Of a DNA stretch of 32,248 bases, positions 6,478-32,248 are shown in pieces (position 1 is the stretch's first letter; each line of letters begins with the position of its first letter). Below the pieces are notes generated by a model that saw nothing but the letters and a program-made list of their open reading frames with translations, searched no databases and was not told the DNA's origin. The translations under genes and the position numbers were made by a program. The DNA lies in the IMG/VR virus record IMGVR_UViG_3300011339_000283, positions 1 through 32,248 of that record; one strand, given 5' to 3'. Source of the stretch: a virus (taxonomy: Duplodnaviria > Caudoviricetes).

Positions 6478-9400
6478 ATGGACAGAGACAAGGCAATCCG
6501 CGCAGCGAAGCTGACGGCCAATCGCATCTCAAACGAGAGCGACCGCCTTGAAACATCGACCCAAGATGCCTCACATATTTTTGGGGATGGTGCGGCTTAC
6601 AAGTTTTACAAGCACCCCAAAAGTGGTGGGTACATCCAAATCCTTCAACGGCCAAGCGGCCCAGCCTCCGTAATTAACCTTGAAGTACCCGAAGAATTTA
6701 GAGGCCAAGGTATTGGTCAAAGACTTCAAGCTGAGGCCATGAAAAATCACCCATCACTTATGGGTCAGGTGTCATCTAAAGCAGCCGCAACAACAGCGTA
6801 CAGGCTTGGCCGTAGACCTTATGGAAACCCAGAGGCAACGCTTGATGATGTGTTTAAAGGCATAGACAGTGACAGTTCTGTCAACATGCTGACCCCCGAT
6901 GCACAACCAAAATCAAAAGGCGGCGCACTTGAGCTTGCCCGCCACGCCACGGCGGTGGGCCGCGCGGGCGGCCAAGTCGCCCCGTCAGAATACCTGCCTG
7001 ATGTCCCCCGCGCCGTCCATGCCGATGGTGGCCCCGCCATGTTTGAGGGCATTCACCCAGACCTTCGAGGCGAAAGCGGCGCACCGCTTGACCTGTATCA
7101 CGGCACGACACACCCAGAAGAGTTTGAGGCGTTTGACGATGCCAAGCTCGGCGCGCGTGACGCTGGCTTCTTTGGTCGTGGCCACTACCTATCGCCCGAT
7201 AAGGGAAATGCGGAAGAGTACGGCGAAGACGGCACCGTAATCGGCCCGCTCCACGCCGCATTGAAGAACCCATACGTTTGGGATGTGTCGAATGACATGA
7301 GGTCACACAGCACCCTGCGTGATCTTCAGTCTATGGGTATCATGCGTGACAAGAACGAACTAAGGCCTTGGGATAACCTGCAATCTCACCACGTCAGGCC
7401 ATTTATGGCGGAGATGCAAAAGCGCGGACATGATGGTGTGATCGTTAAGACTGGCCATGAACACCTGCCCAATGGCATCTCAGAGGTGGTGGCGTTTGAT
7501 CCACGGTCGATCAAGCACAAAGAGGCTGAGGTGTTTGACCCCACCGACCCCCGCATTCGCCGTGAGAATGGCGGCGAGGTTGAGAAAAAGCGCGACTTTA
7601 TGAGGGACAACCCTGGCGGCGAGTGGCTTGAGGGCAAGCGGGCAAGGGCTGCCCAGTACCCAGGCGATAAATTTATGATTGGTGCCACCACGGGCGTAAT
7701 TGGAGGCAGATCAAGCATGTTTTTGCCAACCAATGTCCTGAAGGGCATTACTGGTTTGGAAAACGAAGTGCGCCGTACTGGTGATCCTAGATACGATGCG
7801 TTGCTAGCCGACGCGCAGAGTGGTGGCTTTGACCCAGAGCAAAAGGGTAACAAGGTTGTGGTGGCCGTAAACCACTTTGGGCAGCCGTACCTCCTTGAGG
7901 GAAACACACGGGTGGCCGTGGCGCACTCCATGGGCATCCCAAAGGTCAAGGCCGAGGTCAGATACTGGAATGGCGCTGAGAATGTTGACGGCCCAATGCA
8001 CCCAGAAAACGTCTTTGACATGGCATCGGACAGCCCCGATGTCGCCAAAGCCACGGGTGGCCCCGTCATGGGCTATGTCCCGATGGCGTCCCTGACCGTT
8101 CCACGGCTGGCCGTTGCGCGCGCGCCAGTGCAGCAGCAGCAGGCGACCGTGGGCAAGTTCAGCGACTCCCTGAACTCTCTGATGGACACCGTCGAGGGCT
8201 TCAAGAAGAAGCCAGAGGCTGATGCCCCAGCGGAATCGCCCAGCGCAGCCAGTGAAGGTCACGCGCCTCAAGGCATGAGCGAGGCGGCGGCGGCAGCATA
8301 CGGAAAGCTGACTGACGCATGGGGGCAGCCCCTCACCGTTGTCAGCGCGTACCGCGACCCAGAGAAGAACCAAGAGGTTGGCGGCGCAAAGGGCAGCCAG
8401 CACCTGCATGGCAACGCATACGACATTGACACGTCAAAGCTTTCCTATGAGGATCGCCTGCGCCTTGCCGATGAGGCGTGGAATGCTGGTTTCAGGGGTA
8501 TTGGCTTCTATGATAACAACATGCACTTTGATGTTGGCGACCCCCGTGGTTGGGGGCCGTCTCACAGCAGGGACAGCATCCCAGAGTGGGCGCAGCCCTT
8601 TACTCAGGAGCGTTATGGCTATGCAGACGGAGGAAGCGCGATGAACGATGACAACCAAGACACCAGTGGCAGAAGCAATGTTGAGAGCCTCTCACTGGCT
8701 CGATCTTTGCGAAATATTGGCTCTGGCGGCGGAGATGATCGAGTCCAAAACCTTTTTGACAAGATCGCTGCTGGGCAACAGCAGGCGCAAAAAGCTTATG
8801 AAATGGCCCATTCAAACGGAGAGTTTGACGACTTCAAGATCGGCGATACGTTTGTTTACAAGCATTCAAAAAACCCCACCCCCATGAAGATAACTGGATT
8901 TTCGGTCAGCCGTGCGGAGTCATTCCCGCAAAGAAAGCGCATCTACAACAACCATGTCCCTGTACTGGAGATGGAAGACCAAGATGCTGGCAAGAAGGTC
9001 AACAAGTACCCTGTGGAGGCGTTCCAAGAAAACCTCCACAAGTACGATTTTGTCAGTGGAAAGCCGCGCGCCGTAAAGGCTGGCGGCGGATCGATAAACG
9101 ACGATAACCAAAACGGAGCAATGGAAAATGGCAATGCACCCATCAATTCTGCAACACGCCCCCAAGCGGGAGAACTTCCAAACGCAGGAGGAATACGAGG
9201 AGGCGCTGGCCTTCTTCAAACACAGAACGAAGCACCTCTTGAGGGACTCCCCCAAAAAATAGTCATCCCTCTGACGGGTCAGGTCATTCAGGCGGGTGCA
9301 GATCCTCGGATCAGGCAAGTTGCGCGTGACTACATGGCGCAGGCAGGGCTGTCATACAGCCCGCCGACAAAATACGCTAGGGTTGACCCGAAGCGGGCCG

Positions 9401-10173
9401 CGCGCATCGCCTCTGACTATACCGACATGGAAGACAATCCTGATGATCCCCTGACCAAAGCATCGTACAATGCAATGATTAAGGAAACGATGGATCAGTA
9501 TCACGCCGCAAAGAAATCTGGCTTGAATATTGAGTTTTGGAACCCCCGAAAGCAGGAAGATCCTTACAAAGCATCACCACGTCTTGCCACGGAAGACATT
9601 CGCAAGAACCACCACATGTGGGTATTCCCTACCTACTCAGGGTATGGAAGTGGTGAGCCGATCAGTGAGGATGACGCAAAGAAAAACCCCCTTCTCCAGC
9701 TTACTGGAGAGACGTGGAATGGCATCCCCGTGACCGTCAATGACGTGTTCCGCGCCATCCACGACTATTACGGCCACGCAAAAGAAGGGCTAGGGTTCCG
9801 CGCCGACGGTGAGGAAAACGCATGGCGCGCACATGCTTCAATGTTCTCGCCGCTTGCCCGCATGGCCATGACATCTGAAACCCGTGGGCAGAATAGCTGG
9901 CTCAATTATGGCCCGCATGGCGAGCATAACCGCAAGGCCCGCACCGAGGACACTATTTTTGCTCCACAAAAGATTGGGGTCATGTCCCACCTGTCCCATC
10001 ACGAGGGTGCCGAGGACTTTATCACGCCCGAAGACATCAGCTTCATGGCGTCAATTCGCAAAAGATTTGGCAAGAAACTGGGCGGCGCGGTTGAAAAGGC
10101 CCTTGCCTTAACACGCAGATTTACGAAGGATGGGAAGTCTGCTATAGATGCGCTCAAACCCAAGGGGAAGTGA
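6478..10173 (+). CDS. Large polyvalent protein: GNAT + ADP-ribosyltransferase + ParB-like + M15 peptidase + HDxxGH domain
   Basis: GNAT LEVPEEFRGQGIG (~6600-6815); ART LYHGT..FFGRGHYLS..GHDGVIV..SEVVAF (~7090-7560); ParB/Srx-like YLLEGNTRVAVAHSMG (~7565-8040); M15 SAYR..SQHLHGNAYD..MHFD (~8270-8610); FRAIHDYYGH..GEENAW..ETRGQNSW (~9230-10070). Confidence 0.85.
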   Translation: MDRDKAIRAAKLTANRISNESDRLETSTQDASHIFGDGAAYKFYKHPKSGGYIQILQRPSGPASVINLEVPEEFRGQGIGQRLQAEAMKNHPSLMGQVSSKAAATTAYRLGRRPYGNPEATLDDVFKGIDSDSSVNMLTPDAQPKSKGGALELARHATAVGRAGGQVAPSEYLPDVPRAVHADGGPAMFEGIHPDLRGESGAPLDLYHGTTHPEEFEAFDDAKLGARDAGFFGRGHYLSPDKGNAEEYGEDGTVIGPLHAALKNPYVWDVSNDMRSHSTLRDLQSMGIMRDKNELRPWDNLQSHHVRPFMAEMQKRGHDGVIVKTGHEHLPNGISEVVAFDPRSIKHKEAEVFDPTDPRIRRENGGEVEKKRDFMRDNPGGEWLEGKRARAAQYPGDKFMIGATTGVIGGRSSMFLPTNVLKGITGLENEVRRTGDPRYDALLADAQSGGFDPEQKGNKVVVAVNHFGQPYLLEGNTRVAVAHSMGIPKVKAEVRYWNGAENVDGPMHPENVFDMASDSPDVAKATGGPVMGYVPMASLTVPRLAVARAPVQQQQATVGKFSDSLNSLMDTVEGFKKKPEADAPAESPSAASEGHAPQGMSEAAAAAYGKLTDAWGQPLTVVSAYRDPEKNQEVGGAKGSQHLHGNAYDIDTSKLSYEDRLRLADEAWNAGFRGIGFYDNNMHFDVGDPRGWGPSHSRDSIPEWAQPFTQERYGYADGGSAMNDDNQDTSGRSNVESLSLARSLRNIGSGGGDDRVQNLFDKIAAGQQQAQKAYEMAHSNGEFDDFKIGDTFVYKHSKNPTPMKITGFSVSRAESFPQRKRIYNNHVPVLEMEDQDAGKKVNKYPVEAFQENLHKYDFVSGKPRAVKAGGGSINDDNQNGAMENGNAPINSATRPQAGELPNAGGIRGGAGLLQTQNEAPLEGLPQKIVIPLTGQVIQAGADPRIRQVARDYMAQAGLSYSPPTKYARVDPKRAARIASDYTDMEDNPDDPLTKASYNAMIKETMDQYHAAKKSGLNIEFWNPRKQEDPYKASPRLATEDIRKNHHMWVFPTYSGYGSGEPISEDDAKKNPLLQLTGETWNGIPVTVNDVFRAIHDYYGHAKEGLGFRADGEENAWRAHASMFSPLARMAMTSETRGQNSWLNYGPHGEHNRKARTEDTIFAPQKIGVMSHLSHHEGAEDFITPEDISFMASIRKRFGKKLGGAVEKALALTRRFTKDGKSAIDALKPKGK

Positions 10174-10174
10174 C

Positions 10175-12469
10175 ATGGCTGACATCAAAAAGGCAATGGA
10201 TTTGGTGTCTAAGTACCAAGATCCGCCAAGCAAGAGGATGCAGGGGTTTGATTGGCGCAAGCTGAGAGATGTTCAAGAAGAACTTGGCGGCATGACCGAG
10301 ATACCAAGTCACGTTGAAGATTTTGGCGCGTACATGGACGAAATGGCGCGCAAGGCCGCAACAACTGGACTTTCCCCGCGCGAATTGATCAAGGCCTACG
10401 CCATTACACGGGCAAGCATTCAGCGGCGTTCCCAGAACGTTGATAAATTACGTGCGTCTGGCCTTATATTGCCGCAGAGCGCCACTGGCAGCATTAGGCC
10501 AGAAGGGGCAATGGCCGAGTGGCTGAAGTCGCCAATGGGGCAACGCTACCTTGATGCTGCTGAGATGGGCAAAGTCAATCAAGAAGCTGTTGAACATGCG
10601 CAAGGTGTGATGAAACCGTTTGGGTTGGATACCGAAAGGGATGCTTTGCCGTGGGCCGCAAATAATTTGCATGACAAGCACCAAGCCGTTTCTGACATGG
10701 TGAAGAGGGCGCTGTCAGGCAACAGCCCTATTGCAGAGTGGCGCGAGTTTGCAAACGGATTGCGTGGGATTGGCACTGCAAAAGCTGGTTTTGTGGCGTC
10801 CGTTCTTGGCCGTGGCGATCAGTCCACACTTGATGCTCGCCAAATAAACCTTCACGTTGGAAAACCATCCAATAAGGATGAGAAACGTGTTCGTGACAAT
10901 GCTATTGCAAGGTCTGGATTTGACGCTGTTGACCGACTTTCCGCTCGTCAAACGGCACTTAACCCAAAGATGGACTCTGGATTGGAACCTTTCCGCCAAC
11001 ACCTGACCCACCACGCGACATGGGATAAGATTGGCAATGAGCAGACAACGCATAGCGACATTATAGACTCTATGAAGAACGCCAAAGACGGCGGTCGTAT
11101 TGGGTACGCCACAAAGGGTTCTGTTAAAGACGACAGTGAAGACCACCCTCTGGCCAAATCTTTTTTGAACGCAATACACGGAAGCGTGAACCAAGGAATG
11201 GTGCGGCAAGCTCTTGAGGCTGCTAAGACATCTGGGTTCATTCGAACAGGTGCTGACTTGATTAGGCGTGACCCCCGTTTACAAATTTCGCAACCTAAGT
11301 TGTCCAGCTTAAAGGATAGTAAAAAAAGCGGCCACTTGATCACACCATTTGGGGATTTTCAGGCTGAATTTGCACCCAAGAACAATCTGTCACCTCAGAA
11401 ATACGTCAACATTGAAAGGATGCAGAACGAGGGTGCCTACATCAGACCATTTGTTGGCGATAAGACTCCAGCAGACACCATTCTTTTAGGCCATAACGGC
11501 GTACCGCTTGTTGATCCAGTAAATCAAGAAGGTGGTGGCGACTATATGCGGTCTGATTACTCTCGAACTAACCAACCAACAGGCTGGAGATCGCGTGAAG
11601 GAGCGGCTAAGGGTATGCAGAGTCGTGTTGGCCAAGACGTTCCTGAAGGATCGCCAATCTACGGCGCTCACATGTTGATGGGCAACCCCGCCGCAGATAG
11701 CTCGCACATGCTTTTGCACTCTGTAATCAATCAAGTACCAAATTTGCCAATTGCAAAGCGTCACATTGATGCATTTGATGAGGAAATGCGTGAAAAGTTT
11801 CCGCATGACGAGAAATATCCAATGCCTTGGCCTGGAATTTTAAACACCAATGCGGTTCACGATTTCTTTTACAGGCAGCCAACCGTAGTTCGTGGCAAAA
11901 AGGGTCAGCCAGACATGATTCGCCCTCAACCTAGACCTGGCAAGCACGTTGCAAAATTTATCCAGAACATGGACAGTGTCCGCTGGCAATCAACTGGCTT
12001 TCCCAATGTTGGGTCTGCAAGATTTGCCAATATACACCCAGATTTGATGGCGGAGCCGCAAGGCGCAGTTGGATATGGCCTTACCCAACTTGACCCAAAG
12101 GGCGCACTGGTGGCAAACGATGAAATGCGCGCCCACGGCACCTACACTCACGGCATACCAACATTGGGATACGCTGGACGCTTCCGCGCATTGGTTCCTG
12201 CCGAGAAACTGTATGAGCGTGACGTAAAGAACGCTAATACTTCAACAGAAGCGCAGCAGACCCTTGCAACCAAGTTTCCTGCGATCAAAGTGGATCAGAG
12301 GGTGGTCGATTTGGTGAAGGGCGCTGAGGAAGAACGCATGAAGGAATACGGCTTCAAGCGTGGCGGCAAGGCCAAAAACATAGATCGTGCATTGAAGCTC
12401 ACTTCGATGTACAATGAAAGCGCAACAGGGACGCCTGGTAACCTCAGAGGATCGAAAAATGGACGCTAA
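10175..12469 (+). CDS. Two-domain polyvalent-type protein; N-terminal HhH DNA-glycosylase-like domain plus unknown domain
   Basis: ATG 10175 after AAGGGGAAG; LRGIGTAKAGF...LG....TLD (10760-10834); domains separated by AKDGGRIGYATKGSV. Confidence 0.75.
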   Translation: MADIKKAMDLVSKYQDPPSKRMQGFDWRKLRDVQEELGGMTEIPSHVEDFGAYMDEMARKAATTGLSPRELIKAYAITRASIQRRSQNVDKLRASGLILPQSATGSIRPEGAMAEWLKSPMGQRYLDAAEMGKVNQEAVEHAQGVMKPFGLDTERDALPWAANNLHDKHQAVSDMVKRALSGNSPIAEWREFANGLRGIGTAKAGFVASVLGRGDQSTLDARQINLHVGKPSNKDEKRVRDNAIARSGFDAVDRLSARQTALNPKMDSGLEPFRQHLTHHATWDKIGNEQTTHSDIIDSMKNAKDGGRIGYATKGSVKDDSEDHPLAKSFLNAIHGSVNQGMVRQALEAAKTSGFIRTGADLIRRDPRLQISQPKLSSLKDSKKSGHLITPFGDFQAEFAPKNNLSPQKYVNIERMQNEGAYIRPFVGDKTPADTILLGHNGVPLVDPVNQEGGGDYMRSDYSRTNQPTGWRSREGAAKGMQSRVGQDVPEGSPIYGAHMLMGNPAADSSHMLLHSVINQVPNLPIAKRHIDAFDEEMREKFPHDEKYPMPWPGILNTNAVHDFFYRQPTVVRGKKGQPDMIRPQPRPGKHVAKFIQNMDSVRWQSTGFPNVGSARFANIHPDLMAEPQGAVGYGLTQLDPKGALVANDEMRAHGTYTHGIPTLGYAGRFRALVPAEKLYERDVKNANTSTEAQQTLATKFPAIKVDQRVVDLVKGAEEERMKEYGFKRGGKAKNIDRALKLTSMYNESATGTPGNLRGSKNGR

Positions 12470-14174
12470 AAGCCTACGCGAGGCAATGAAGCAGAAGGCC
12501 AAGCGCCTCTGCGGAGCCACTTCGGAAAAAGTTGACGCATCGACGTTTACCCCAGCTGAGCCGCTGAACGCAGACGTGAAGACGGGCGCTCGCCCAGTCT
12601 CTCGCCGCGCATTCAAGGTCGGCGGCAAGGTGGATGGCGCTGAAGCCATGACCCACGCTGGCCGCACACCGCGCAAGTCTGGTGGAAAAACGGAATACGC
12701 CAACGCATTGGTGAACCGTAACGTCAAGGATGCCAATGAAGAGCGCGAAGGCATTAAGCACGTAGGTGGTTTTGCCAAAGGCGGTGTTCCAGAATACAAC
12801 GAAGAATCCGTCGAGAAAGCTATACAGTCTTCGCGCCAGAAGATTGGCAAGAAGGAGTCCAGCACGATTAAGTCCCTACTTCAGGGTCGCAAGGCATCTA
12901 TGCCGATGAAGAAAAATGACGATGGCAATACAGAGTACGCCAAAGGTGGACGTATCTCCAAAATGGGCGGTGGCCCGATGGACGCCAAAAAGGGTGAGGG
13001 CAAGATGACTGCCCCATTGGATCACTATCAGCCCCTGCCTCAAGAGGAGCGTTCAAACATCATCACCATGGATCAAGCTGACGAAATGATGCGCGAAGAA
13101 ATGCGCCGTCAGGGCGACATGACCCGCCGCAAACATGGTGGCAAGACCGAGGGTTCTGCCAAGGACATGATGGAAGACAAGAAGATGGCTGCCAAGATGG
13201 GCATGACCATGAAGGAATGGGAAGCATCCCATGCCGACAAGATGCACGACATGCCATCCAAGGGCCGCACCAAGAAGATGGGCGGCGGCAGCATGGGTTA
13301 CGCCGCTGGCGGAAAAATGAAGATGGTCGAGAAAGACGGCAAGAAGGTTCCATTCTTTGCCGCTGACGGCGTTGGCAAGATGGCAAACGGTGGCGGCCTG
13401 TACGCCAACATCCACGCCAAGCGCGAGCGCATTGAAGACGGCTCGAAAGAGAAGATGCGCAAGCCAGGTGCCAAGGGCGCTCCATCCGCCTCTGACTTCA
13501 AGGACGCAGCCAAGACCGCCATGAAAAAGGGCGGCGTTGCACCTCTTTTACCCCCCGTTAAAGAAAGAGATTTTCCAATTAGCGGCAGGGATATGCCGAC
13601 AGAAATGCGGCAAGAAAGTGATCGATACGCTGGCGATTTAACTCGCCGCAAGTCTGGCGGCAGCGCCATGAAGAAGGGCGGAAAGGCCATGCACCACAAG
13701 GACTGCATGTGCAAGGCCTGCGGTGGCGCTGCGATGTCTGAAGAGGGTGGCCGCACGGCCCGCAAGTCTGGTGGTAAGGTTGGCAAGAGCAACATCAGCA
13801 TCAACATCTACCCGCACACCGCCGAGAAGGCTGGCGCTATGCCCGTCCCACCCGCTGGTATGCCGCCCATGATGAAGCCACCAATGCCAATGCCTGCGCC
13901 CATGCCGTCGGCACCGCCCCCAGCCCACATGTCGCTCCCTCCAGGGCTGCAGCAGGCTCTGGCAGGCGCTGCGGGCGCTGGGCCTATGCCACCCGCTGGC
14001 GGTGGGATGCCTCAGCCCATGATGAACCGCCCCCCAATGCCTGCGCCTATGATGGGCCGCAAGGCTGGCGGCAGAGTGGAATACCCAATCACTGGCGGTT
14101 CTGGTGGCGGGCGCGCTCGCAAGGAAAAGGTCACAGCCTACGGCGAAAAGATGAACAAAGACCTCAGAAAGTAA
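12459..14174 (+). CDS. Low-complexity K/M/G-rich protein with many xxxGG repeats and Pro/Met-rich C-terminus; probable internal virion protein
   Basis: GAGG before ATG 12459; at least 15 GG motifs separating short peptides. Confidence 0.8.
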   Translation: MDAKSLREAMKQKAKRLCGATSEKVDASTFTPAEPLNADVKTGARPVSRRAFKVGGKVDGAEAMTHAGRTPRKSGGKTEYANALVNRNVKDANEEREGIKHVGGFAKGGVPEYNEESVEKAIQSSRQKIGKKESSTIKSLLQGRKASMPMKKNDDGNTEYAKGGRISKMGGGPMDAKKGEGKMTAPLDHYQPLPQEERSNIITMDQADEMMREEMRRQGDMTRRKHGGKTEGSAKDMMEDKKMAAKMGMTMKEWEASHADKMHDMPSKGRTKKMGGGSMGYAAGGKMKMVEKDGKKVPFFAADGVGKMANGGGLYANIHAKRERIEDGSKEKMRKPGAKGAPSASDFKDAAKTAMKKGGVAPLLPPVKERDFPISGRDMPTEMRQESDRYAGDLTRRKSGGSAMKKGGKAMHHKDCMCKACGGAAMSEEGGRTARKSGGKVGKSNISINIYPHTAEKAGAMPVPPAGMPPMMKPPMPMPAPMPSAPPPAHMSLPPGLQQALAGAAGAGPMPPAGGGMPQPMMNRPPMPAPMMGRKAGGRVEYPITGGSGGGRARKEKVTAYGEKMNKDLRK

Positions 14175-14181
14175 ACCTTGG

Positions 14182-14445: not shown

Positions 14446-14835
14446 ATGCCCCATATGCCCATGAGCCACGAAGAAGACCCAAAGAAAAAGCTGCTGGAAG
14501 AGCTTGGTGACATCTCAAACGTTGAGTTGTTCCACAACCAAGTACTTCTTGCCGTCTACCTGCGGCCAGAAAAGACAAAATCTGGCCTGATTTTGACTGC
14601 AAATCACCTTGATGAAGATCGATACCAGTCAAAAGTTGGCCTGCTGGTCAAGCGAGGGCCTCTCGCATTTGAGCAGGACGGCAATTGGTTCACTGGAGTG
14701 ACCTTCCAAGACCACGACTGGCTCATTTTCCGCCCATCTGACGGCTGGTCTATCACCGTCAATGGCGTTTTGTGCCGCATTTTTGATGACATCAGCATCA
14801 AGGGCCGCGCACCCCACCCAGATTCCGTTTATTGA
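14446..14835 (+). CDS. GroES/Cpn10-like co-chaperonin
   Basis: LFHNQVLL, mobile-loop EKTKSGLIL, GLLVKRGP, DWLIF, ITVNGVLCRIFDDISI. Confidence 0.85.
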   Translation: MPHMPMSHEEDPKKKLLEELGDISNVELFHNQVLLAVYLRPEKTKSGLILTANHLDEDRYQSKVGLLVKRGPLAFEQDGNWFTGVTFQDHDWLIFRPSDGWSITVNGVLCRIFDDISIKGRAPHPDSVY

Positions 14836-19009: not shown

Positions 19010-19011
19010 CG

Positions 19012-19618: not shown

Positions 19619-20221
19619 ATGACCACCAGCGTTTTCTATGTGTACGAACACTGGCGGCTTGACCGTGATGAATGTTTTTACGTTGGTAAGGGTAAGGGCA
19701 TTCGCGCATACAAGATGCGTGACCGTAATGCTCATCATCGGGCAATTATGGGTAAACTATCCCGCGAAGGTAGCGGCATGGAAGTGCGCATGGTTGCGAC
19801 AGGCTTGACTGAGGATGAGGCATTTGCGATTGAGGTTGAACGTATTGCTTTTTGGCGTGAGGCTGGCATTGATCTTGCAAATCGCACTAATGGCGGAGAT
19901 GGTGTAAGCGGCTTGAAGATGTCGGATGAAGCTAAGGCCAAAATGTCCGCTGCCAAACTTGGGAAGAAGCAAAAACCAGATGTTGTAGCTAGGCGCATTG
20001 CCCCCCTAATTGGCCGCAAACAGCCGCGAGAGGCAATAGAGATGGGTGCTGAAAAACGCCGTGGTAATCCGCTTTCGGCAGAGCATAAAGCTAAAATTTC
20101 AGCCGCACACACAGGAAAGATTGTAAGCGATGAGACGAGGGCTTCTCTGAGCGCTGCCAATAAAGGTAAACCGTGGAGTGAGAAGCGCAGGGTTGCGGAG
20201 AATACCAGGAGGGAGCTATGA
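19619..20221 (+). CDS. Free-standing GIY-YIG-like homing endonuclease with NUMOD3 repeats
   Basis: FYVYEH..FYVGKG..R, EAFAIE, LANRTNGGDG, repeats SDEAKAKMS / SAEHKAKIS / SDETRASLS. Confidence 0.85.
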   Translation: MTTSVFYVYEHWRLDRDECFYVGKGKGIRAYKMRDRNAHHRAIMGKLSREGSGMEVRMVATGLTEDEAFAIEVERIAFWREAGIDLANRTNGGDGVSGLKMSDEAKAKMSAAKLGKKQKPDVVARRIAPLIGRKQPREAIEMGAEKRRGNPLSAEHKAKISAAHTGKIVSDETRASLSAANKGKPWSEKRRVAENTRREL

Positions 20222-20898
20222 CCACTAGTGGTGCATACACGTTTAATCCAGGATTGGGAGAAATAGTTCTCTATGCTTATCAAAACATAGGCATACGTCC
20301 AGCTTCTATTTTGCAAGAACACATGGAGACAGCAAGAATGGCTGCCAACATGATGCTTTCAAGATTTTCAAATCAGGGCGTAAACCTTTGGGCGGTTGAC
20401 CTGATCACCACGCCACTGATTGAGGGCCAGACCACCTACGCCGTAGCGCCAAACACAGTCATGATCCTCGACGCATATACCACGACCGATCAGGGCATCG
20501 ACCGTGTCATCATGCCAATCAGCCGTACAGAGTACGCATCATACCCGAACAAAGAACAACAGGGCTTCGTCACGTCCTTCTGGTATGACCGCCTCATCTC
20601 GCCCACAATCACGCTGTGGCCCGTTCCTGATGGCACCTCGTCCACGATCTTGAAGTACTATCGTGTGCGCCAGATCCAAGACTCAAATCTCCAAAATAAC
20701 GAAAATGTCGAAATTCCCTATTTGTGGCTGGAGTGCTTTGCTGACGGACTGGCATACCGACTGGCGCGCATCTGGAACCCGCAAATGGCCGTGGCACTCA
20801 AGGCTCAGGCCGATGAGAGCTATGCCATCGCATCCAACCAGAACGTGGAGAATGTCGGCACGTACATCTCACCAATGTTGGGGTCGTATTTTAGATGA
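20218..20898 (+). CDS. Head-tail adaptor protein (paralog 1)
   Basis: ISRTEYASYPNK, WYDR..ITLWPVPD, EIPYLWLECFADGLAYRLA. Confidence 0.7.
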   Translation: MTTSGAYTFNPGLGEIVLYAYQNIGIRPASILQEHMETARMAANMMLSRFSNQGVNLWAVDLITTPLIEGQTTYAVAPNTVMILDAYTTTDQGIDRVIMPISRTEYASYPNKEQQGFVTSFWYDRLISPTITLWPVPDGTSSTILKYYRVRQIQDSNLQNNENVEIPYLWLECFADGLAYRLARIWNPQMAVALKAQADESYAIASNQNVENVGTYISPMLGSYFR

Positions 20899-21548
20899 AA
20901 AAGTTTTACGTATATGAGCATTGGCGACCCGATCTTGACCTCCCGTTTTATGTGGGCAAGGGTAGTGCGTCTAGGTTTGACCCAAATCGAACCAGAAACA
21001 AACATCACAGCAATATAAAGAACAAGCTAAAGAAGCTTGGAATGTGCGTAGAGGTACGCATGGTTGCATCTGGCCTTTCTGAGGATGACGCATTGCGCTT
21101 GGAGATAGAGCGAATTGCTTTTTGGAAAGAACGCAACGTTGAACTTTCAAACAAAACTGCTGGCGGTGACGGTTTGAAAAGCCCGCCTGAAGACGTATTA
21201 GAAAAAATGAGGGCTGCATCCAAAAAACGTTGGTCTGCGCCTGATTCAAGAGAGAAGCACTCCATTGCCACCAAAATTGGCATGGATAATGATGCTGTAA
21301 GGGCAAAGTGTTCTGGCGGGCGGGCGGGAAGAAAAGCATCTTTAGAAACGAAGGCAAAGATGTCTATTTCAGCTATGGGTCATCCCGTATCCGAGGAAGC
21401 CCGTAAAAAAATATCCAAGGCACACCTTGGCAATACCTATGGATCAAAGACCCGTGGAAAGCCAAGGCCAAAAATGTCTGATGACACAAAGGCAAAAATG
21501 AGAGAGTCTCAACGTGCGCGGCGCGAACGAGAAAAGGCTTTGTCGTAA
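20895..21548 (+). CDS. Second GIY-YIG-like homing endonuclease with NUMOD3 repeats
   Basis: FYVYEHWR..FYVGKG..R, VRMVASGLSEDDALRLE, LSNKTAGGDG, SLETKAKMS / SEEARKKIS / SDDTKAKM. Confidence 0.85.
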   Translation: MKKFYVYEHWRPDLDLPFYVGKGSASRFDPNRTRNKHHSNIKNKLKKLGMCVEVRMVASGLSEDDALRLEIERIAFWKERNVELSNKTAGGDGLKSPPEDVLEKMRAASKKRWSAPDSREKHSIATKIGMDNDAVRAKCSGGRAGRKASLETKAKMSISAMGHPVSEEARKKISKAHLGNTYGSKTRGKPRPKMSDDTKAKMRESQRARREREKALS

Positions 21549-24782: not shown

Positions 24783-24909
24783 CGCTATTTGCGATGGCAC
24801 CGCCGATAAGAGGACAAACCACGCCGCTGCCCTTGCCGAGGACGGTGGTGACAAGTCCGTTGTGACTGGCGCGATCCTGATTGCCTCAATCGATAGGGCC
24901 TGCAAATGA
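24709..24909 (+). CDS. Outer-membrane spanin-like lipoprotein
   Basis: MMLKKLLVMTLLSSVSG-C lipobox, overlapping previous gene in +1 frame; AAAGGA upstream. Confidence 0.7.
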   Translation: MMLKKLLVMTLLSSVSGCANVVSSNAICDGTADKRTNHAAALAEDGGDKSVVTGAILIASIDRACK

Positions 24910-25175: not shown

Positions 25176-25196
25176 GTGGCGGATTTAGTCTATAGT
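25168..25196 (+). promoter_or_regulatory. Sigma70-type promoter candidate for tail/ejection operon
   Basis: TTGGAT (25168-25173), 17 nt spacer, TATAGT (25191-25196). Confidence 0.55.
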
Positions 25197-25219
25197 GCCT
25201 GAAAACGTAAGGTGACCTC

Positions 25220-25960
25220 ATGGTTGGACTGACATACGCAACGTACAAGACGCAGATCGCGCAGATGGCCGTGGTTGAGGAGGATGATGTCAACTTCTTG
25301 GCAATTCTTCCCTCAATGATCGACTACGCCACTTTGCGCATCAACCGTGACCTTGACCTTTTGATTACATCGGCATCCCTGTCTGGGGTCAATTACAAGC
25401 TGACAACTGGAAACAGGAACCTGTCTTTCAGCCAAAACCTTGCTGGAGGATCGTACTTTGTTGTCAGTGAGCAAATCAACTTAATCACCCCCGCTGGGCA
25501 AACTGACCCAAACTCCAATAATCGCATACCGCTCCTGCCAGTGACCAAAGAGTTCTTGGATGCTGTTTTTGGGTCTGCATTGACTGCAAATAGGGGTCAG
25601 CCAAAATACTTCGCCCCATTTAACGACACGTTATTTCTCGTTGGGCCTGTTCCAGATGTTGACTATTATGTTGAAGTGGTGGGTACGGTTCGACCTGCGC
25701 CGCTATCAGAAGATGTGCCAACCACATTTATCAGCCAGTATCTGCCAGACCTCCTGATCATGGCATCCATGATCTACATCTCTGCCTATCAGCGCAACTT
25801 TGGCAGGCAGTCAGACGATCCCCAGATGGCGCAGAGCTATGAAAGCCAGTACGGCACCCTACTCAAGTCTGCAATGGTTGAAGAGGCGCGGAAGAAGTAC
25901 GAGGGTGCGGCGTGGTCATCTCAAGCGCCCGCCCCTGTCGCATCACCAACGCGAGGCTGA
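25220..25960 (+). CDS. Head-tail adaptor / tail tubular protein (paralog 2)
   Basis: LTYATYKTQI, GQPKYFA, LVGPVPDVDYYVEV, TFISQYLPDLL; precedes nozzle gene. Confidence 0.7.
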   Translation: MVGLTYATYKTQIAQMAVVEEDDVNFLAILPSMIDYATLRINRDLDLLITSASLSGVNYKLTTGNRNLSFSQNLAGGSYFVVSEQINLITPAGQTDPNSNNRIPLLPVTKEFLDAVFGSALTANRGQPKYFAPFNDTLFLVGPVPDVDYYVEVVGTVRPAPLSEDVPTTFISQYLPDLLIMASMIYISAYQRNFGRQSDDPQMAQSYESQYGTLLKSAMVEEARKKYEGAAWSSQAPAPVASPTRG

Positions 25961-25963
25961 TAA

Positions 25964-28516
25964 ATGCCACACGCAAGCCTCAAGCTAATACCAGGTGTTG
26001 ACCAGAACAGGACACCCGCCCTAAATGAGGCGGCTATCTCTGAGAGCAATCTGATCAGGTTTGTGCCAGATCGGCAGGGCCTTGGGCTGCCTCAAAAGCT
26101 TGGAGGCTGGACGCAGTTTGTCAGCAATGCTCAGTCTTCGGTTGTGCGCGCCCTGCACTCTTGGGCCAACATAGACGGCGAATCTTATTTGGCAATTGGG
26201 GATGAGGACAGTCTAAACATTGCAACAGCCAACGGCTTTTCATCTGAAATATCGCCCCAGTTCTACGAATACAATCTTCCAGTGTCGGTTGACACGGTGA
26301 GTGGATCGGCCACTGTAACCATCAATGACACTAATTCAAATATTTCATCGTACGATGGTGTAAACATCCTGACTCCAATCAGCGTGGGTGGCATCATACT
26401 GTCTGGGTATTACCCTCCAATTGCCTTGAACGATGATGCGTACCAAGTTGTTGCCCGAAACATTATTGGCCTGACAACACCCGCCACGCAGACATTTTCG
26501 GTTACCGCGATAACGGTATCAGGTTCGTCACCCAACTTCATTGCCACGGCGATTTGCTCCCCATCCACTACCGTTGTGACGGTTGGCTCCACAGTAACTT
26601 TTTCAGGTGTAACTCCAGTTGGGTACAATGCTGCTTGGACAGTCCTCACATCGTCTGCTGGGACGTTTACCTTCTCAACTGGCACGACCAACTTTGGCCC
26701 CTTGACTGTGGCTGGCACCTTTATTGCGCCTAGCGGCGCGGTGCCTGTTTTTGACACCACGAGCGGCCAGATCAATGTTAAGGTAACCTTGGCAAACCAT
26801 GGGTACACTGCGGGATCGACATTTGCCATTTTGGTTCCAGTGAGCGTTGGGGGCTTGACCCTCTATGGGAATTACATCGTACTTGATACACCAGTGCTGA
26901 CAGCAAATGATTTTTACATTGCGGCGGAGAACTCTGCAACATCGACTCAGACCGTGTCAATGAATGGGGGTGCCGCAAGGATCGTCTACTACGTGGGTAA
27001 GCAGAACATACCGCCTCCAGGTGGCTTTGGTGACGGCCTCTTTGGCGCTGGCGGATTTGGCACGGGCGTAACCTCAAGTGGTGGCCGTCAACTTGCCATT
27101 GCGTCAATATCCGCATCCAGCCTCGTGGCAACGGTGACGGTAAATCAGGTTTTGTATGTCGCCCCAAATACGCGAATTACAATTACTGGCACCACAAACT
27201 ACAATGGGACGTTCATTGTCACGGCGGCAACTTCTGGCGCTACCAGTACATTCTCCTTTGCGGTGACAACAAATCCCGCAACCGAGACATCTGGGACTGT
27301 CACCACTGATTCGTGGGGATTTCCACCTGGTGTGTACAGTTCCACCAGTCAAAACGTGTCTGCACCCCTTGAGGTCAATGACTGGTCTTTGGACAACTGG
27401 GGCGGCTTCTTGATGGCAAGCCCAACCAACAGCGGTCTGTTCTATTACGACACTATGGATGGCGGCAATCATGCAAACGTTGTTCCCTATGCCCCCACAG
27501 TCAGCGAAGGCTTCTTTGTGTCGATGCCAGAGCGTCAGATCATTTGCTACGGCACGACATTCAATGGCATAAAAGACCCACTTCTGGTGCGTTGGACGGA
27601 CATTGGCAACTTTACCAGTTGGGTTGCCACGGTCAGCAATCAGGCGGGTTCTTTCCGCATCCCGAAGGGGTCTAAGATTGTCGGCGGTATGCAGGGGCCG
27701 CAGCAGGGCCTTCTGTGGACGGACACCAATTTGTGGTCGATGCAGTACATCAACTTGCCACTGGTATATTCGTTCAACGAGATTGGCGCTGGCTGCGGTT
27801 TGATTGGCCGAAAGGCCATGGGAACCATGAGTGGTATCGTGTACTGGATGAGCCAGAGCCAGTTCTTTGTCTTGGCTGGGGGTGGCGTTCAGCCGCTGCC
27901 ATGCCCCGTCTGGGATGTCATCTTCCAAGACATCGACCAAGACTACCTCAGCAACATTCGTTGCGCGCCCAACAGTCGCTTTGGCGAGATTTCTTGGTAT
28001 TACCCAACCACAGGGTCGAATGGTGTCCCCACAAAGTACGTCAAGTACAACACCCTGCTCCAGCAATGGGATTTTGGTACGCTGACCCGCACCGCTTGGA
28101 TTGATCAGGGGGTTTTCGGCCCACCCATTGGCGCTGATGATGACGGCATCATCTACCAGCATGAGACATCCCAGAATGCCGCTGGCGCTGAGATGGATGC
28201 ATATGTCCAGACAGGTTACTTTGCCCTCAGTGAGGGTGACAATATGACGTTCCTTGATCAGGTCTGGCCAGACATGAAGTGGGGATATTACGGCGGCTCG
28301 AACAATGCCAACGTCAATATCACGTTCTACGCTGTGGACTACCCAGGCCAGACACCCAGAGTTTATGGGCCGTACAACGTAAACCAAGGGACAGAGTACA
28401 TCTCGCCACGCATTCGTGCGCGCCTGATCTCAATCAAGATTGCGGGCAGCCAGATCGACACGTTCTGGCGATTGGGTAACATCCGATACCGCCTCCAACC
28501 AGATGGAAAATATTGA
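25964..28516 (+). CDS. Tail nozzle / DNA-stabilisation protein (P22 gp10-like) with inserted beta repeats
   Basis: 850 aa; QKLGGW, WSLDNWG, DPLLVRWTD, LLWTDTNLWSMQY, VYWMSQSQFF, RTAWID, WRLGNIRY. Confidence 0.8.
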   Translation: MPHASLKLIPGVDQNRTPALNEAAISESNLIRFVPDRQGLGLPQKLGGWTQFVSNAQSSVVRALHSWANIDGESYLAIGDEDSLNIATANGFSSEISPQFYEYNLPVSVDTVSGSATVTINDTNSNISSYDGVNILTPISVGGIILSGYYPPIALNDDAYQVVARNIIGLTTPATQTFSVTAITVSGSSPNFIATAICSPSTTVVTVGSTVTFSGVTPVGYNAAWTVLTSSAGTFTFSTGTTNFGPLTVAGTFIAPSGAVPVFDTTSGQINVKVTLANHGYTAGSTFAILVPVSVGGLTLYGNYIVLDTPVLTANDFYIAAENSATSTQTVSMNGGAARIVYYVGKQNIPPPGGFGDGLFGAGGFGTGVTSSGGRQLAIASISASSLVATVTVNQVLYVAPNTRITITGTTNYNGTFIVTAATSGATSTFSFAVTTNPATETSGTVTTDSWGFPPGVYSSTSQNVSAPLEVNDWSLDNWGGFLMASPTNSGLFYYDTMDGGNHANVVPYAPTVSEGFFVSMPERQIICYGTTFNGIKDPLLVRWTDIGNFTSWVATVSNQAGSFRIPKGSKIVGGMQGPQQGLLWTDTNLWSMQYINLPLVYSFNEIGAGCGLIGRKAMGTMSGIVYWMSQSQFFVLAGGGVQPLPCPVWDVIFQDIDQDYLSNIRCAPNSRFGEISWYYPTTGSNGVPTKYVKYNTLLQQWDFGTLTRTAWIDQGVFGPPIGADDDGIIYQHETSQNAAGAEMDAYVQTGYFALSEGDNMTFLDQVWPDMKWGYYGGSNNANVNITFYAVDYPGQTPRVYGPYNVNQGTEYISPRIRARLISIKIAGSQIDTFWRLGNIRYRLQPDGKY

Positions 28517-28866
28517 TGGCATCTCTGTCAGACATTCTTACCGCCGCCAAGAACCTTGTCACCTCGGTGAACCAGCTTGGCCAGACGTACCTCAAAATCA
28601 ACGGAACCGCCCGATCATCCACTCTGACTGCAACCACTTTGGTAGCCAATGGCCAAGGCAGGCTCGCCTCAATCAGTGTCGTGGTCGCTGGCAGTTCCAA
28701 CTGCGTGGTGTATGACAGCAACAACGCATCCAGCTTGACTAGCGGCTTGGCGGCAGTGGCAAACGCCGTTGGCGTGACGGTGATCAATATGCCATACAAC
28801 AATGGCCTCGTCGTTGTCCCAGGCACTGGTATGACTGTCGTAATCTCGTACTCTGAGGGAGCATAA
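28516..28866 (+). CDS. Small tail-cluster protein
   Basis: TGATG coupling; N-terminal helix plus beta-rich C-terminus (GLVVVPGTG). Confidence 0.7.
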   Translation: MASLSDILTAAKNLVTSVNQLGQTYLKINGTARSSTLTATTLVANGQGRLASISVVVAGSSNCVVYDSNNASSLTSGLAAVANAVGVTVINMPYNNGLVVVPGTGMTVVISYSEGA

Positions 28867-28867
28867 A

Positions 28868-29434
28868 ATGCCGCTAAAGCATGGATCATCGCAGGAAACC
28901 ATTTCTGATAATATCTCAGAGATGGTGGACGCTGGACACCCACAGGATCAGGCTATCGCCGCAGCCCTCAGAACCGCTCGCGCGCGCGGTGGAAGGACAA
29001 AGGTTCACAAGGGTGCCATCCACAGTTCTGTGGCTGGCCGCACAGACCACCTCCCGATGCATGTGGCATCTGGCTCCTACGTCATCCCCGCAGACATCAT
29101 CTCGGCCATGGGTGAGGGAAATTCCATGGCTGGCTTCAAGGTCGCCAAGAACATCTTCTCTGGCAAGAGGCCGTACGGGCAAAGCGGGATGCCATACGGG
29201 GCCAACGGGCTTCCATACGGCGTTCCAGCCCCACGCAAGGCTGAGGGTGGTGATGTTGATTCAGTACCCATCGTTGCGGCTGGCGGCGAGTATGTGATAC
29301 CACCCGAAGACGTTGTCGAGATTGGCAAGGGTGATCTGGATCACGGCCACAAAATATTGGACGCATTCGTAAAAAAGATGCGCCAAAGGACGATTAAAAC
29401 TTTGCAGAAATTACCTGGCCCAAAGAAGGATTAA
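28868..29434 (+). CDS. Protein with duplicated GG...G(S/E)YVIP domain
   Basis: RARGG...DHLPMHVASGSYVIPADIISAMGEG and KAEGGDVDSVPIVAAGGEYVIPPEDVVEIGKG. Confidence 0.8.
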   Translation: MPLKHGSSQETISDNISEMVDAGHPQDQAIAAALRTARARGGRTKVHKGAIHSSVAGRTDHLPMHVASGSYVIPADIISAMGEGNSMAGFKVAKNIFSGKRPYGQSGMPYGANGLPYGVPAPRKAEGGDVDSVPIVAAGGEYVIPPEDVVEIGKGDLDHGHKILDAFVKKMRQRTIKTLQKLPGPKKD

Positions 29435-29437
29435 AGC

Positions 29438-29929
29438 ATGAGTGAGATTAAGGTTCGCGTTGGGGTTCCCGAAGATTTCAATGAGATGATGCGGCTCTCG
29501 ATTGCGGCGACACAGGAAAACGCCTTCATTGCGCCAGACATTGGGCTGCTCGCAAACCAAGTGTATAAGTCACTGATCCAACAGAACGGTGTGGTTGGGG
29601 TGATTGGTAATAAGGTCGGCGGAAAGCTTCAGGGAGCGATCCTGCTCAATATCGGCCCAGTGTGGTACAGCGCGGAGCCTGTCCTTGAGGAGAAGGCGAT
29701 CTACGTTGACCCTGAGTACCGAGCCGCAAAGGGTGGGCGCGCGCGCAAGCTGGCCGAATTCGCAAAGGGAATGGCCGAGGAGCTTGACTTGCCACTGGCC
29801 ATTGGTGTGCTGTCAAACAGCAGGACTGAGGCTAAGATCAGGCTCTACGAGCGAACCTTTGGTAAGCCTGCGGGTGTCTACTTCCTTTACAATGCAAAGA
29901 CTGGTATAGTTCCCGAAACCGAGGGGTAA
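29438..29929 (+). CDS. GNAT-family acyltransferase
   Basis: VRVGVPEDF, LEEKAIYVDPEYR..GGRARKL, KIRLYERTFG; AAGGA upstream. Confidence 0.8.
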   Translation: MSEIKVRVGVPEDFNEMMRLSIAATQENAFIAPDIGLLANQVYKSLIQQNGVVGVIGNKVGGKLQGAILLNIGPVWYSAEPVLEEKAIYVDPEYRAAKGGRARKLAEFAKGMAEELDLPLAIGVLSNSRTEAKIRLYERTFGKPAGVYFLYNAKTGIVPETEG

Positions 29930-29933
29930 TCCA

Positions 29934-32248
29934 ATGGGCGGCAAGACAACAACCTCAACGAACAAGGTCACCATTCCCAAGGATGTCCTTGATCGGTATA
30001 ATGCCGTCAACGCTCAGGCGGCGCAAGCTGCCCAGAACCCGTTCCAAAAGTACGGCACTAAGCCTGAGGATTTTGTCGCCCAGTTCAACGAACAGCAACT
30101 GAAGGGTGTTGAGGGCATCAATACCGTCGCTGGTATGGGGCCAGTGTATGAAAACGTGGACAAGTATCTCAACCCCTACATTAAGAACGTTGCTGACACT
30201 ACCCGCGCGCAGATAGAGCAAGCCAATGAGCAGGCGCAGTCTGGCGCACTCGGCACCGCCATACAGTCCAATGCATTTGGTGGCGACCGCGCTGGCGTTG
30301 CCGCCGCAAACCTCGCGGGACAACAAAATCTTGCCATGGGTTCGACCATGGCAAACATTTACGGCGAGGGCTATAATAGGGCCGTCGACACAAGCATGAA
30401 TGACAGGAACAGCCTGTTGGGCGTTGCTGGTGCGCAGTTGGGCGCAGGTACTCAGATGCAGCAGACCACGCAGGCTGGCATTGACGCTCTTATCAACCAG
30501 TTCCAGCAGGAGCAGGGCTATCCATTCCAAGTGGCGCAGTTCTTGGCCAACATTGCCATGGGAACTGGCGCGCTGTCTGGATCAACCACCACAGGTACCC
30601 AGATGGCACCCTTCTTCTCGGATCGCCGCCTCAAGCACGACATCAAAAAGATTGGCGAGGCGGACAACGGCCTGCCGATCTACACCTTCAAGTACAAGGG
30701 TGATGAGCATCACCAGACCCATGTCGGCTTTATGGCTGATGAGGTTGAGAAGAAAAACCCTGAAGCTGTGGGCCTCGACCCCAGTGGCTACAAGACTGTT
30801 GACTACAACAAGGCCACGGAGAGCATGGGTGGCGCGGTCAAGGGATACGCTGAAGGCGGTGTGGCTGGGCCATACGGCACCAAGGTTGGCCAAGGTGTGG
30901 GCGTGGGCAGCTATGTGCCGCAGGCGTACCTTCCAGTTGGCGAGTTGATGGTGGCAGACCCAAGTTTTGCCCAGCAAAGCCAAGCAAACTTCTTGGATAC
31001 CCTAAATTCAGCGGCCACCGCAGGCGAGAGCGTTTTGAAAATACGCAATCTCCTTCGTGATCCTGACGCAAAGGTACCAACAAAAGAACCCGCCGCGCCT
31101 GCTGCTGCAGGTAATATCCAACAGTTCGAACCGCCAGCAGGCCTTATAGGCGGTGGCGCGGGGCGCTATGCTGTTGGCGGTGGGGTGCAGCCACAGGTGC
31201 ATGGCGATTATATGTCCAGCACACTGGCGGCGCAGGAGGCTGACAAGGACAAGCCAGAACTTAAGGTTGCTGGACAACAAGATCAGCCGAAGTCTGGCAT
31301 GGAAAACGTTGCCAGTGCCTTGGGGGCTGCCGCATCCATTGCGTCCCTATTCCCGTCTGACCGCCGCCTAAAGCATGATATTAAGAGAATTGGTAAGACT
31401 GAAAAAGGTCTGCCGATTTACACCTTCAAGTACAAGGGTGATGACCGCGAGCAAACCCACGTTGGCTTCATGGCCGATGAGGTTGAGCGCGACCATCCAG
31501 AGGCCGTTGGCAAGCGGGATGGCTACAAAACCGTTGACTACAGCCAAGCCCACAAGTTTGCCGATGGTGGCGTTGCGGGCCGTCATGGCTATGCCCTTGA
31601 TGGCGCAGTCGAGGAGCGCATTCGTGATGCCATGCGCGCAACCGCAGCCAATGAGAACAACATGCGCCTGACCCGCGATGAAGTACCCGCCGTGCAGACA
31701 CTGGGAAGCCTGCCCAATGCGAGCGTTATGGCTGCAGAGGCAGCGCCAAGGACAGCAGACGAGTCGGCAAACGCCTACAGGGCTGCCGCTGAAAACCGCT
31801 TTGCTGGCCTCGCCCCCGCTGCTGATCAGGTACGCCCTATGCCACGTCCCGCTGGCTTGGTTCCCGCCGCCACTCCCACCGTGGAACAGCGCCCAGAGCC
31901 TCGCCCAGCTGGCCTTGGCCCCGCTGCGGTAGTAAAGCCCATGCCTCGTCCAGAGGGTCTTGAGGCCTTTGCAACTGGTTATGGCGCGGCCCGAAACCAC
32001 TTCCGTACAAAAATTATTCCCCAAGAAAGCGGTGGTCGCCAGTTTGACGAAAACGGCCAACCGCTGACCTCACCCAAGGGCGCAACTGGCATTGCGCAAG
32101 TTATGAAAGCCACGGGGCCAGAAGCGGCTAAACTTGCAAATTTACCGTGGGATGAATACCCCTGGGAAAAAGATGCCGATTACAATGCTGCGATTGGTGA
32201 GGCATATTTCCTAGATCAGTATCGCAAATCTGGCCCTATTGATAAGGC
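29934..32248 (+). CDS. Ejection/DNA-transfer-type polyprotein (3' truncated): pilot-like N-domain, two peptidase S74 domains, lytic transglycosylase
   Basis: Hand translation: open from ATG 29934 (MGGKTTTST...) to window end; Q/A/G-rich with NAFGGDR; SDRRLKHDI at 30618 and 31356; IIPQESGG..SPKGATGIAQVM from ~32013. Confidence 0.9.
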   Translation, partial: MGGKTTTSTNKVTIPKDVLDRYNAVNAQAAQAAQNPFQKYGTKPEDFVAQFNEQQLKGVEGINTVAGMGPVYENVDKYLNPYIKNVADTTRAQIEQANEQAQSGALGTAIQSNAFGGDRAGVAAANLAGQQNLAMGSTMANIYGEGYNRAVDTSMNDRNSLLGVAGAQLGAGTQMQQTTQAGIDALINQFQQEQGYPFQVAQFLANIAMGTGALSGSTTTGTQMAPFFSDRRLKHDIKKIGEADNGLPIYTFKYKGDEHHQTHVGFMADEVEKKNPEAVGLDPSGYKTVDYNKATESMGGAVKGYAEGGVAGPYGTKVGQGVGVGSYVPQAYLPVGELMVADPSFAQQSQANFLDTLNSAATAGESVLKIRNLLRDPDAKVPTKEPAAPAAAGNIQQFEPPAGLIGGGAGRYAVGGGVQPQVHGDYMSSTLAAQEADKDKPELKVAGQQDQPKSGMENVASALGAAASIASLFPSDRRLKHDIKRIGKTEKGLPIYTFKYKGDDREQTHVGFMADEVERDHPEAVGKRDGYKTVDYSQAHKFADGGVAGRHGYALDGAVEERIRDAMRATAANENNMRLTRDEVPAVQTLGSLPNASVMAAEAAPRTADESANAYRAAAENRFAGLAPAADQVRPMPRPAGLVPAATPTVEQRPEPRPAGLGPAAVVKPMPRPEGLEAFATGYGAARNHFRTKIIPQESGGRQFDENGQPLTSPKGATGIAQVMKATGPEAAKLANLPWDEYPWEKDADYNAAIGEAYFLDQYRKSGPIDK
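30618..31553 (+). repeat. Dispersed direct repeat encoding the two S74 domains (~30618-30815 and ~31356-31553)
   Basis: For example ctgccgat(c/t)tacaccttcaagtacaagggtgatga is present in both copies. Confidence 0.9.

Follow-up and report, generated by a model that had tools for sequence, protein, structure and literature searches.

Why should a short peptide containing Gly-Gly recur in the large, modular proteins of a phage while staying at chance level in the other proteins of the same genome segment? The question is raised by the 32,248-nucleotide stretch of DNA analysed here (the window; IMG/VR virus record IMGVR_UViG_3300011339_000283, Duplodnaviria; Caudoviricetes). This linear record, which is about 56% complete, carries the virion module of a short-tailed-type phage. 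A first, sequence-only reading had noticed the peptide in five proteins, encoded by the open reading frames (ORFs) that start at positions 6478, 10175, 12459, 28868 and 29934, and had proposed that it is a protease site, a docking tag that routes cargo, or a recombination joint. Our analysis indicates that the motif, X-[A/K]-x-G-G, is probably a maturation cleavage site that is cut between X and the Ala or Lys, the bond marked below by an arrow. The genes, motifs and tags described for the portal, the five proteins and the GNAT lie on the + strand.

Enrichment of the motif in the window and in related phages

The consensus [RKHFYM]-[AKE]-x-G-G was derived by listing every GG pair in the window. 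This strict pattern is matched 26 times in the five proteins (3,525 amino acids, aa), compared with a mean of 2.7 and a maximum of 10 in 2,000 shuffles; the matches are distributed as six in ORF 6478, one in ORF 10175 (plus a variant, A-KDGG), 14 in ORF 12459, two in ORF 28868 and three in ORF 29934. The 26 other window proteins (6,310 aa) contain two matches, in ORFs 23932 and 24906, vs 1.65 expected. The repetition noticed in the five proteins and its lack in the portal, scaffold, capsid, adaptors and nozzle were correctly read, and the motif positions given for ORF 6478 were all exact. Two details need to be amended: RAGGQV at 6961 should probably be dropped from the motif list, as relatives have RAPGQ or RADGQ there, and the 15 or more copies counted in ORF 12459 are reached only with looser variants, 14 being strict.

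Since the pattern was read off the window, the real test is provided by the relatives, for which we used 157 IMG/VR loci and one GenBank genome; four near-identical loci were dropped, and the proteins were de-duplicated and are still related to each other. The post-portal proteins of these relatives carry 318 motifs vs 35.0 after shuffling, an enrichment of about 9-fold, and 64 of the 68 proteins have at least one. The corresponding values are 54 vs 5.9 for the ORF 28868 family (29 of 31 proteins) and 138 vs 32.5 for the first ejection protein (46 of 49). No enrichment is found among 226 core structural and packaging proteins of the relatives, with 12 motifs vs about 21 in the shuffles. The motif is not, as had been claimed, confined to five proteins, because the second ejection protein, whose gene lies beyond the window's end, carries it in 31 of 35 relatives (33 motifs vs 13.4 shuffled).

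The conserved unit, X-[A/K]-x-G-G-x-[V/A], also occurs far outside this genome; the motif turns up in phages that infect E. coli, Pseudomonas, Caulobacter, Pelagibacter, Mycobacterium and Bacteroides, mostly right before a conserved module. The residue before the proposed cut (P1) may be K, F, R, Y, M, H, A or S, and from this wide variation we infer that specificity is defined C-terminal of the scissile bond.

The motif at module joints

The largest of the five proteins, polyvalent cargo protein A (6478..10173, 1231 aa), illustrates how the motif is placed. Its predicted pieces comprise residues 1-181, 182-362 (ART-PolyVal), 363-524, 525-715 (peptidase M15), 716-867, 868-1199 (a phrog_3170 match) and 1200-1231, and its modules are reordered in relatives. 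Five of its motifs are accompanied by clusters of homology breakpoints: H↓ADGG (7018..7032), at the end of a leader and the start of the ART module, by a cluster at residue 185; R↓ENGG (7561..7575) by one at 360; K↓ATGG (8047..8061) at 523; Y↓ADGG (8620..8634) at 723; and K↓AGGG (9076..9090) at 869. The sixth, K↓KLGG (10072..10086), is followed by a C-terminal helix tag at 10090. The conserved leader, of about 40 residues and ending in H↓ADGG (6919-7032), is N-terminal in many relatives and internal in the window (residue 148), where it stands behind an inserted module. One relative, MW202675, has the ORF 6478 modules in a changed order, with a motif on both sides of each.

Homology breakpoints were located in 50 post-portal proteins: of the 118 distinct ones, 64 lie at most 10 aa from a motif, vs 10.1 expected, and 20 lie near other GG pairs, vs 13.8 expected. 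The link between motif and domain boundary noted in the sequence-only reading is also found in the relatives. A breakpoint of cargo protein B, at residue 315, is close to its A↓KDGG. The ORF 28868 family provides a further test: 20 of its 77 longest proteins gave Pfam matches (ART, InPase, CHAP, lysozyme, NUDIX, GNAT), and none of 67 motifs falls inside the 18 near-complete domains of 16 of these proteins, vs 14.9 expected, many of the 67 being situated 6-15 residues from a domain edge.

At the motif, third codon positions are as free as at other GG pairs and the first Gly prefers GGY codons, as it does in those pairs, while residue positions -3, -2 and +2 are constrained. Free codons together with constrained residues indicate that the signal is the peptide. 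A recombination site at the DNA level was rejected on account of this equality of codon use; of the recombination joint first proposed, the exchange of modules at motifs is supported and the DNA signal is not. It could still be argued that the motif is a flexible linker, kept merely as a joint for in-frame shuffling, given that breakpoints and indels occur at motifs both in this family and in the crAss C1 proteins described below. We regard this as very unlikely, because a joint of that kind accounts neither for ordinary third positions beside constrained residues, nor for single copies kept before a tape-measure module with no need for shuffling, nor for the cut that phage T5 makes at the motif.

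Cleavage at the motif in T5 and the register of crAss001

The tape measure protein pb2 of T5 is cut after R1127 into pb2* and pb2C (PMC10038345), and the sequence at this position is R1127↓AEGG. Intact masses of the two pieces, obtained without trypsin, are 121,683 and 9,702 (PMC11937500); those that we calculated for a cut at R1127↓A are 121,679.6 and 9,701.7. Segments of the form [AKE]xGG start at just 3 of the 1,219 positions of pb2. Because of these masses, the cut is placed before the Ala, and a cut after GG, in the style of ubiquitin-like proteins or double-glycine leaders, was rejected. The T5 cut and the crAss001 register support the protease site of the sequence-only reading, displaced from the GG itself to the bond before Ala. 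In the available text, the T5 authors describe pb2C as a metallopeptidase with muralytic activity and mention no motif (PMC10038345, PMC11937500). The older site reported for T5, V1148, is located just behind the Glu of a G-T-E-V segment (L174:8122-8781, minus strand), and a second cut of pb2 after ejection is possible.

A second line of evidence, weaker than T5, comes from crAss001. The motif is repeated in its cargo protein gp45 (C1, PF25725), and the 15 other virion-module genes examined have two looser matches in total. In 21 diverse relatives we counted 73 strict motifs vs 9.9 after shuffling, and in 64 of 120 close C1 variants deletions extend from motif to motif. The portal-bound density of gp45 corresponds to residues 425-552 (PMC10172136); residue 425 is the A of N424↓AFGG, and motif-type starts occur at 10 of 842 positions. 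The tail-barrel piece, residues 214-245, lies between two motifs, and none of the four gp45 mass spectrometry regions named in the text of PMC10172136 spans one. In the 2018 gel-band peak lists for crAss001, by matrix-assisted laser desorption/ionization (MALDI; PMC6235969), bands 1-7 and part of band 8 were compared and six gp45 masses were looked for throughout the file; no band was assignable to gp45, either intact or cut, and, at mass offsets of up to 0.1, this result weighs neither way.

The same structure bears on a different explanation, in which the motif would be an uncut docking peptide, a strand with a Gly-Gly turn, that binds the portal, the capsid or the module of ORF 28868 and so sets cargo in order for packaging and ejection, ORF 28868 acting as carrier or anchor. 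In its favour, the A425-F-G-G segment of the portal-bound domain stays ordered, a similar Y-A-x-G-G strand has a structural role in designed propellers of the Kelch type, the ORF 28868 family itself carries cargo, and one match in pb2, R138-ALGG, is left uncut. We nevertheless consider docking unlikely: it leaves unexplained the exact coincidence of the measured T5 cut with the motif, it needs one tag per protein where most modules have a motif at either end, and the same proteins possess a separate terminal helix tag. The routing tag proposed at first stays a rival, and that helix tag looks like the better candidate for a packaging signal.

ORF 28868 as a candidate cutting agent

If the motif is a cleavage site, as we favour, an agent that cuts it must be sought. 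ORF 28868 is a stand-alone ORF of 188 aa composed of a short two-helix module and two copies of a module of about 50 residues, here called GE[YF]V. The N-terminal two-helix module (28868..28981; phrog_2423, a profile of about 52 positions) ends with a helix tag (28955) and the motif R↓ARGG (28979). Repeat 1 (29000..29161) keeps an Asp (GRTD, D60) and has Ser where Glu is expected; the motif K↓AEGG and repeat 2 follow (29237..29434), with the invariant Glu (E141), His161 and Asp165 kept. A weak similarity (E about 0.1) also links the two-helix module to sequence located at or beside the gene for the head-maturation protease in many Acinetobacter phages.

Repeat 2 is homologous to a C-proximal module found behind the motif in lambda gpH and in nine other tape measures (hhalign against the tape-measure module: probability 90.4, E 1.4e-6, with E values of at least 0.33 for the reversed controls). 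In the doubled form of the module, repeat 1 has the Asp in 98% of sequences, with Ser for Glu, and repeat 2 has the Glu in 100%, with the Asp lost; the same division across repeats is seen in F116 gp58. Where cultured phages have the module as a single copy (Caulobacter GB2A gp65, MinM2 gp22, DSL-LC04 and HTVC115P gp72), it retains both Asp and Glu and bridges to many annotated tape measures, which GB2A gp65 finds by tblastn. A mixed profile picks up the tape measures of Douge and JBD30, neither of which was included in it; its matches to lambda and T5 were discarded as circular, both sequences being in its alignment. The module is matched by 4,647 cluster representatives. From a sample of 150 listed representatives of the ORF 28868 family, one protein of 7,221 aa was excluded, and all of the remaining 149 (149/149) carry the motif, in 425 copies vs 42 after shuffling. 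The family itself holds cargo domains between conserved ends.

The division of Asp and Glu over the repeats is the pattern that a fused dimer with one shared site would show, and makes the pair a candidate composite active site. This division and the homology to the tape-measure module make ORF 28868 plausible as the cutter; the GE[YF]V module may be the cutting agent, with the Asp of repeat 1 and the Glu of repeat 2 in one site, a proposal to which we give somewhat less than an even chance. The structural searches leave the matter where it was. The full-length model of ORF 28868 (predicted local distance difference test, pLDDT, 61.6) matches uncharacterised phage proteins or generic two-helix motifs; with the domain model (mean pLDDT 79.6, linker of low confidence), the best Z was 3.1 among 48,161 chains and Foldseek gave nothing at E 0.001. 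These empty fold searches neither support nor exclude a protease nature. PDB sequence searches with ORF 28868 or with family profiles gave nothing significant, and a predicted complex, in which both repeats were combined with a motif-bearing peptide of ORF 12459, scored 0.16 (mark, 0.32) and was not used as evidence.

The cut could also be made by a host protease or by another phage gene, an account that overlaps with cleavage at the motif as favoured here and departs from it in leaving ORF 28868 aside. P22 gp7 is trimmed by host OpdA beside a Gly-Gly-rich N-terminus (GenBank note), the title of a cited paper reports a host role in T5 tail-protein cleavage, and in the complete relative MW202675 a gene annotated as sprT-like stands just before the terminase (L081:32571-33209). 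Among the 30 window proteins scanned no prohead serine protease was found, nor a match to a zincin-like MPTase (Pfam, PHROGs; genome about 56% complete), and the window's incompleteness itself leaves room for another enzyme. We hold such a cutter to be doubtful though far from negligible, given that the motif recurs in phages of the hosts listed above, usually directly ahead of a conserved module, and that its P1 is variable, unlike that of a simple Arg-specific host enzyme.

Observations that weigh against cleavage by this system

Several results speak against the interpretation proposed here, either in its cleavage part or in its choice of cutter. The T5 site was disputed, V1148 ± 1 having been obtained by MALDI, and R1127 is also a trypsin site (PMC11937520); the authors answered this with the intact masses (PMC11937500). 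The large pb2 fragment, which is intact, contains the strict match R138-ALGG; this site is evidently uncut, so the motif alone is insufficient and needs context. No homology between pb2C and ORF 28868 was detected in profile comparison (probability at most 2%), and the link between them consequently rests on the peptide and on an equivalent place in tape measures. In lambda, a cut at position 733 would remove 12.5 kDa, vs about 14 kDa reported, and lambda-type modules carry His, not Asp, near the Glu. For crAss001, the authors model gp45 as a single continuous chain (PMC10172136), and the start of the cryo-electron microscopy density may be a mere domain edge. The C1 domain (425-552) reached a profile probability of at most 2% against ORF 28868, with no PF25725 Pfam match; the two have an xxGEV core in common and an Atlas score of 0.77, which is a lead only, and C1 is absent from the fold-search listings. 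Breakpoints of the first ejection protein mostly fall away from motifs (45 of 490 are at one, vs 24.2 expected). Another protease may be encoded outside the record, and in this phage, which is uncultured, cutting at the motif is a prediction.

Cargo proteins, terminal tags and a possible order of events

The five proteins are probably head cargo that is packaged in the virion. This is suggested by where their genes lie (either in the stretch from portal to scaffold or within the ejection module), by their polyvalent effector domains and by the same grammar in crAss001 C1. Behind protein A, cargo protein B (10175..12469, 764 aa) has the motifs A↓KDGG (11081) and F↓KRGG (12353) and helix tags at 10184 and 12380. 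Cargo protein C (12459..14174, 571 aa) is basic and of low complexity; if its 14 strict motifs were all cut, peptides of 7-99 aa would result, one of which matches phrog_16028, a profile of about 50 positions. The first ejection-type protein (29934..32248), truncated by the window's end, has a lysozyme-like match near residue 700 and the motifs Y↓AEGG (30846), Y↓AVGG (31167) and F↓ADGG (31557). It contains two S74 self-cleaving chaperone domains, with a motif after each, and it begins with M-G-G-K, resembling the trimmed N-terminus of P22 gp7.

The helix tag was described with the pattern [VIA]xxA[LIMA]x[LIVAT][TSAV], which was tuned on these same sequences. Its first occurrence in the window is the N-terminal amphipathic helix of protein A (6493..6516), and further tags are at 10090, 10184, 12380 and 28955. 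In relatives, a terminal tag is present in 39 of 68 post-portal proteins, 30 of 35 second ejection proteins and 17 of 31 members of the ORF 28868 family (shuffles, 0.7-2.0); none of the 49 first ejection proteins has it, and 8 of the 226 core proteins do, vs 6.0 expected. The tag is often set off from the protein body by a motif, as expected of a removable packaging signal, for which it is a candidate.

The following order of events seems likely. Cargo precursors would be loaded uncut by means of their terminal helix tags and would then be cut at X↓[A/K]xGG, during or after assembly. The products, effectors 150-420 residues long together with small basic peptides, would each begin with [A/K]xGG. 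In-frame swapping of modules at short repeats of the motif-coding DNA would be a by-product.

Gene setting

The virion module, according to Pfam and PHROGs, includes genes for a terminase, an SU10-type portal, a GroES-like protein, the capsid, two adaptors, a nozzle-like structural protein, a GNAT and an ejection-type protein; a probable scaffold gene was assigned by position. The three large ORFs 6478, 10175 and 12459 are directly behind the portal gene (4180..6477; PF23899, phrog_1216), whose product has no motif, and ORF 28868 precedes the GNAT gene and ORF 29934. The GNAT acetyltransferase (29438..29929) has homologues in 79 ORFs of the loci and is conserved in its place between ORF 28868 and the ejection genes. 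It could modify the new N-termini; yet the mass of T5 pb2C is that of the unmodified fragment. The gene for the phage-encoded GroES-like co-chaperonin (14446-14835) follows the cargo cluster and precedes the probable scaffold gene, and two NUMOD3 homing-endonuclease-like genes (19619-20221 and 20895-21548) lie on either side of an adaptor gene.

Comparison with known systems

Two kinds of phage served as reference points. P22 and T7 have one match to the motif each, in both cases in the terminase; their ejection proteins have none and the module is absent. In F116 and HTVC115P, motif and module are both present, and in the latter, a Pelagibacter phage, a gene located between those for portal and capsid encodes the module in single copy, along with three motifs (L176:6293-7300). 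No mapped cut sites were found in papers on JBD30, Douge, Sf11, DT57C and phiTE. For Enterobacter phage N5822, the record splits the tape measure into separately annotated pieces (L173:1-921). We found no description of the motif as a shared cut code in the literature covered, which did not extend to unread supplements and subscription papers.

Taken together, a new protease module (GE[YF]V, with a composite Asp/Glu site) and the X↓AxGG code might form one maturation system across tailed phages, working in cis in lambda, T5 and crAss C1 and in trans through ORF 28868; we consider this broader scheme conceivable, a little less so than the cutting role of ORF 28868. For lambda, in which cleavage of the tape measure has been known since 1974, the motif provides a defined prediction, F733↓A734, giving 79,776 and 12,522 Da before Met removal, together with a named candidate catalyst. 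It also offers a new reading of the crAss001 structure, in which the head and tail pieces of C1 would be cut products. The motif further supplies a rule for parsing the mosaic cargo of a very large family of uncultured phages into probable mature effectors, and an enzyme with its specificity on the C-terminal side of the cut and with many residues accepted at P1 would be useful for protein processing.

Motif-directed head maturation is known in T4-like and giant phages. The present system resembles maturation by prohead proteases (T4 gp21, phiKZ gp175, SPN3US gp245) in that a short motif would be cut in many packaged proteins. The prohead-protease motifs, however, have Glu as their last residue and are recognised on the N-terminal side of the cut, and a prohead serine protease is needed.

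Polyvalent phage proteins are already known as mosaic proteins that are delivered with the virion, with processing proposed through zincin MPTase domains (Iyer et al. 2017, PMC5512222). The proteins studied here share with them the ART-PolyVal, InPase, GNAT and peptidoglycan hydrolase modules in mosaic proteins, and ORF 6478 combines the unrelated effector domains ART-PolyVal and M15 in one mosaic polypeptide, with a different module order in relatives. They differ in that the words linker and glycine are absent from the main text of PMC5512222 and in that the MPTase was not seen here with Pfam and PHROGs.

With lambda, the likeness is in the tape measure gpH, which loses a piece of about 14 kDa (giving gpH* and gpHC) at a site and by a catalyst that a 2025 paper gives as unknown (PMC12617516). 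Lambda gpH has F733↓ATGG in the region of piece removal, and a further Y↓ATGG; the former is followed by a GEFV module homologous to repeat 2 of ORF 28868. The lambda module is single and in cis, and the phage is long-tailed, whereas ORF 28868 is not part of a long tape measure but stands alone, in a phage with an SU10-type portal, adaptors and ejection-type genes.

CrAss001 C1, proven to be virion cargo, shows AxGG joints in repeated use, deletions that run from one motif to another and a resolved domain that starts at the A; it differs in being published as a continuous chain and in having just the xxGEV core in common with ORF 28868. T5 pb2 provides the closest match to the proposed cut, with R↓AEGG at a measured site, the same peptide in the same register as K↓AEGG in ORF 28868 and Y↓AEGG in ORF 29934, the difference being that T5 makes a single cut, in a tail protein.

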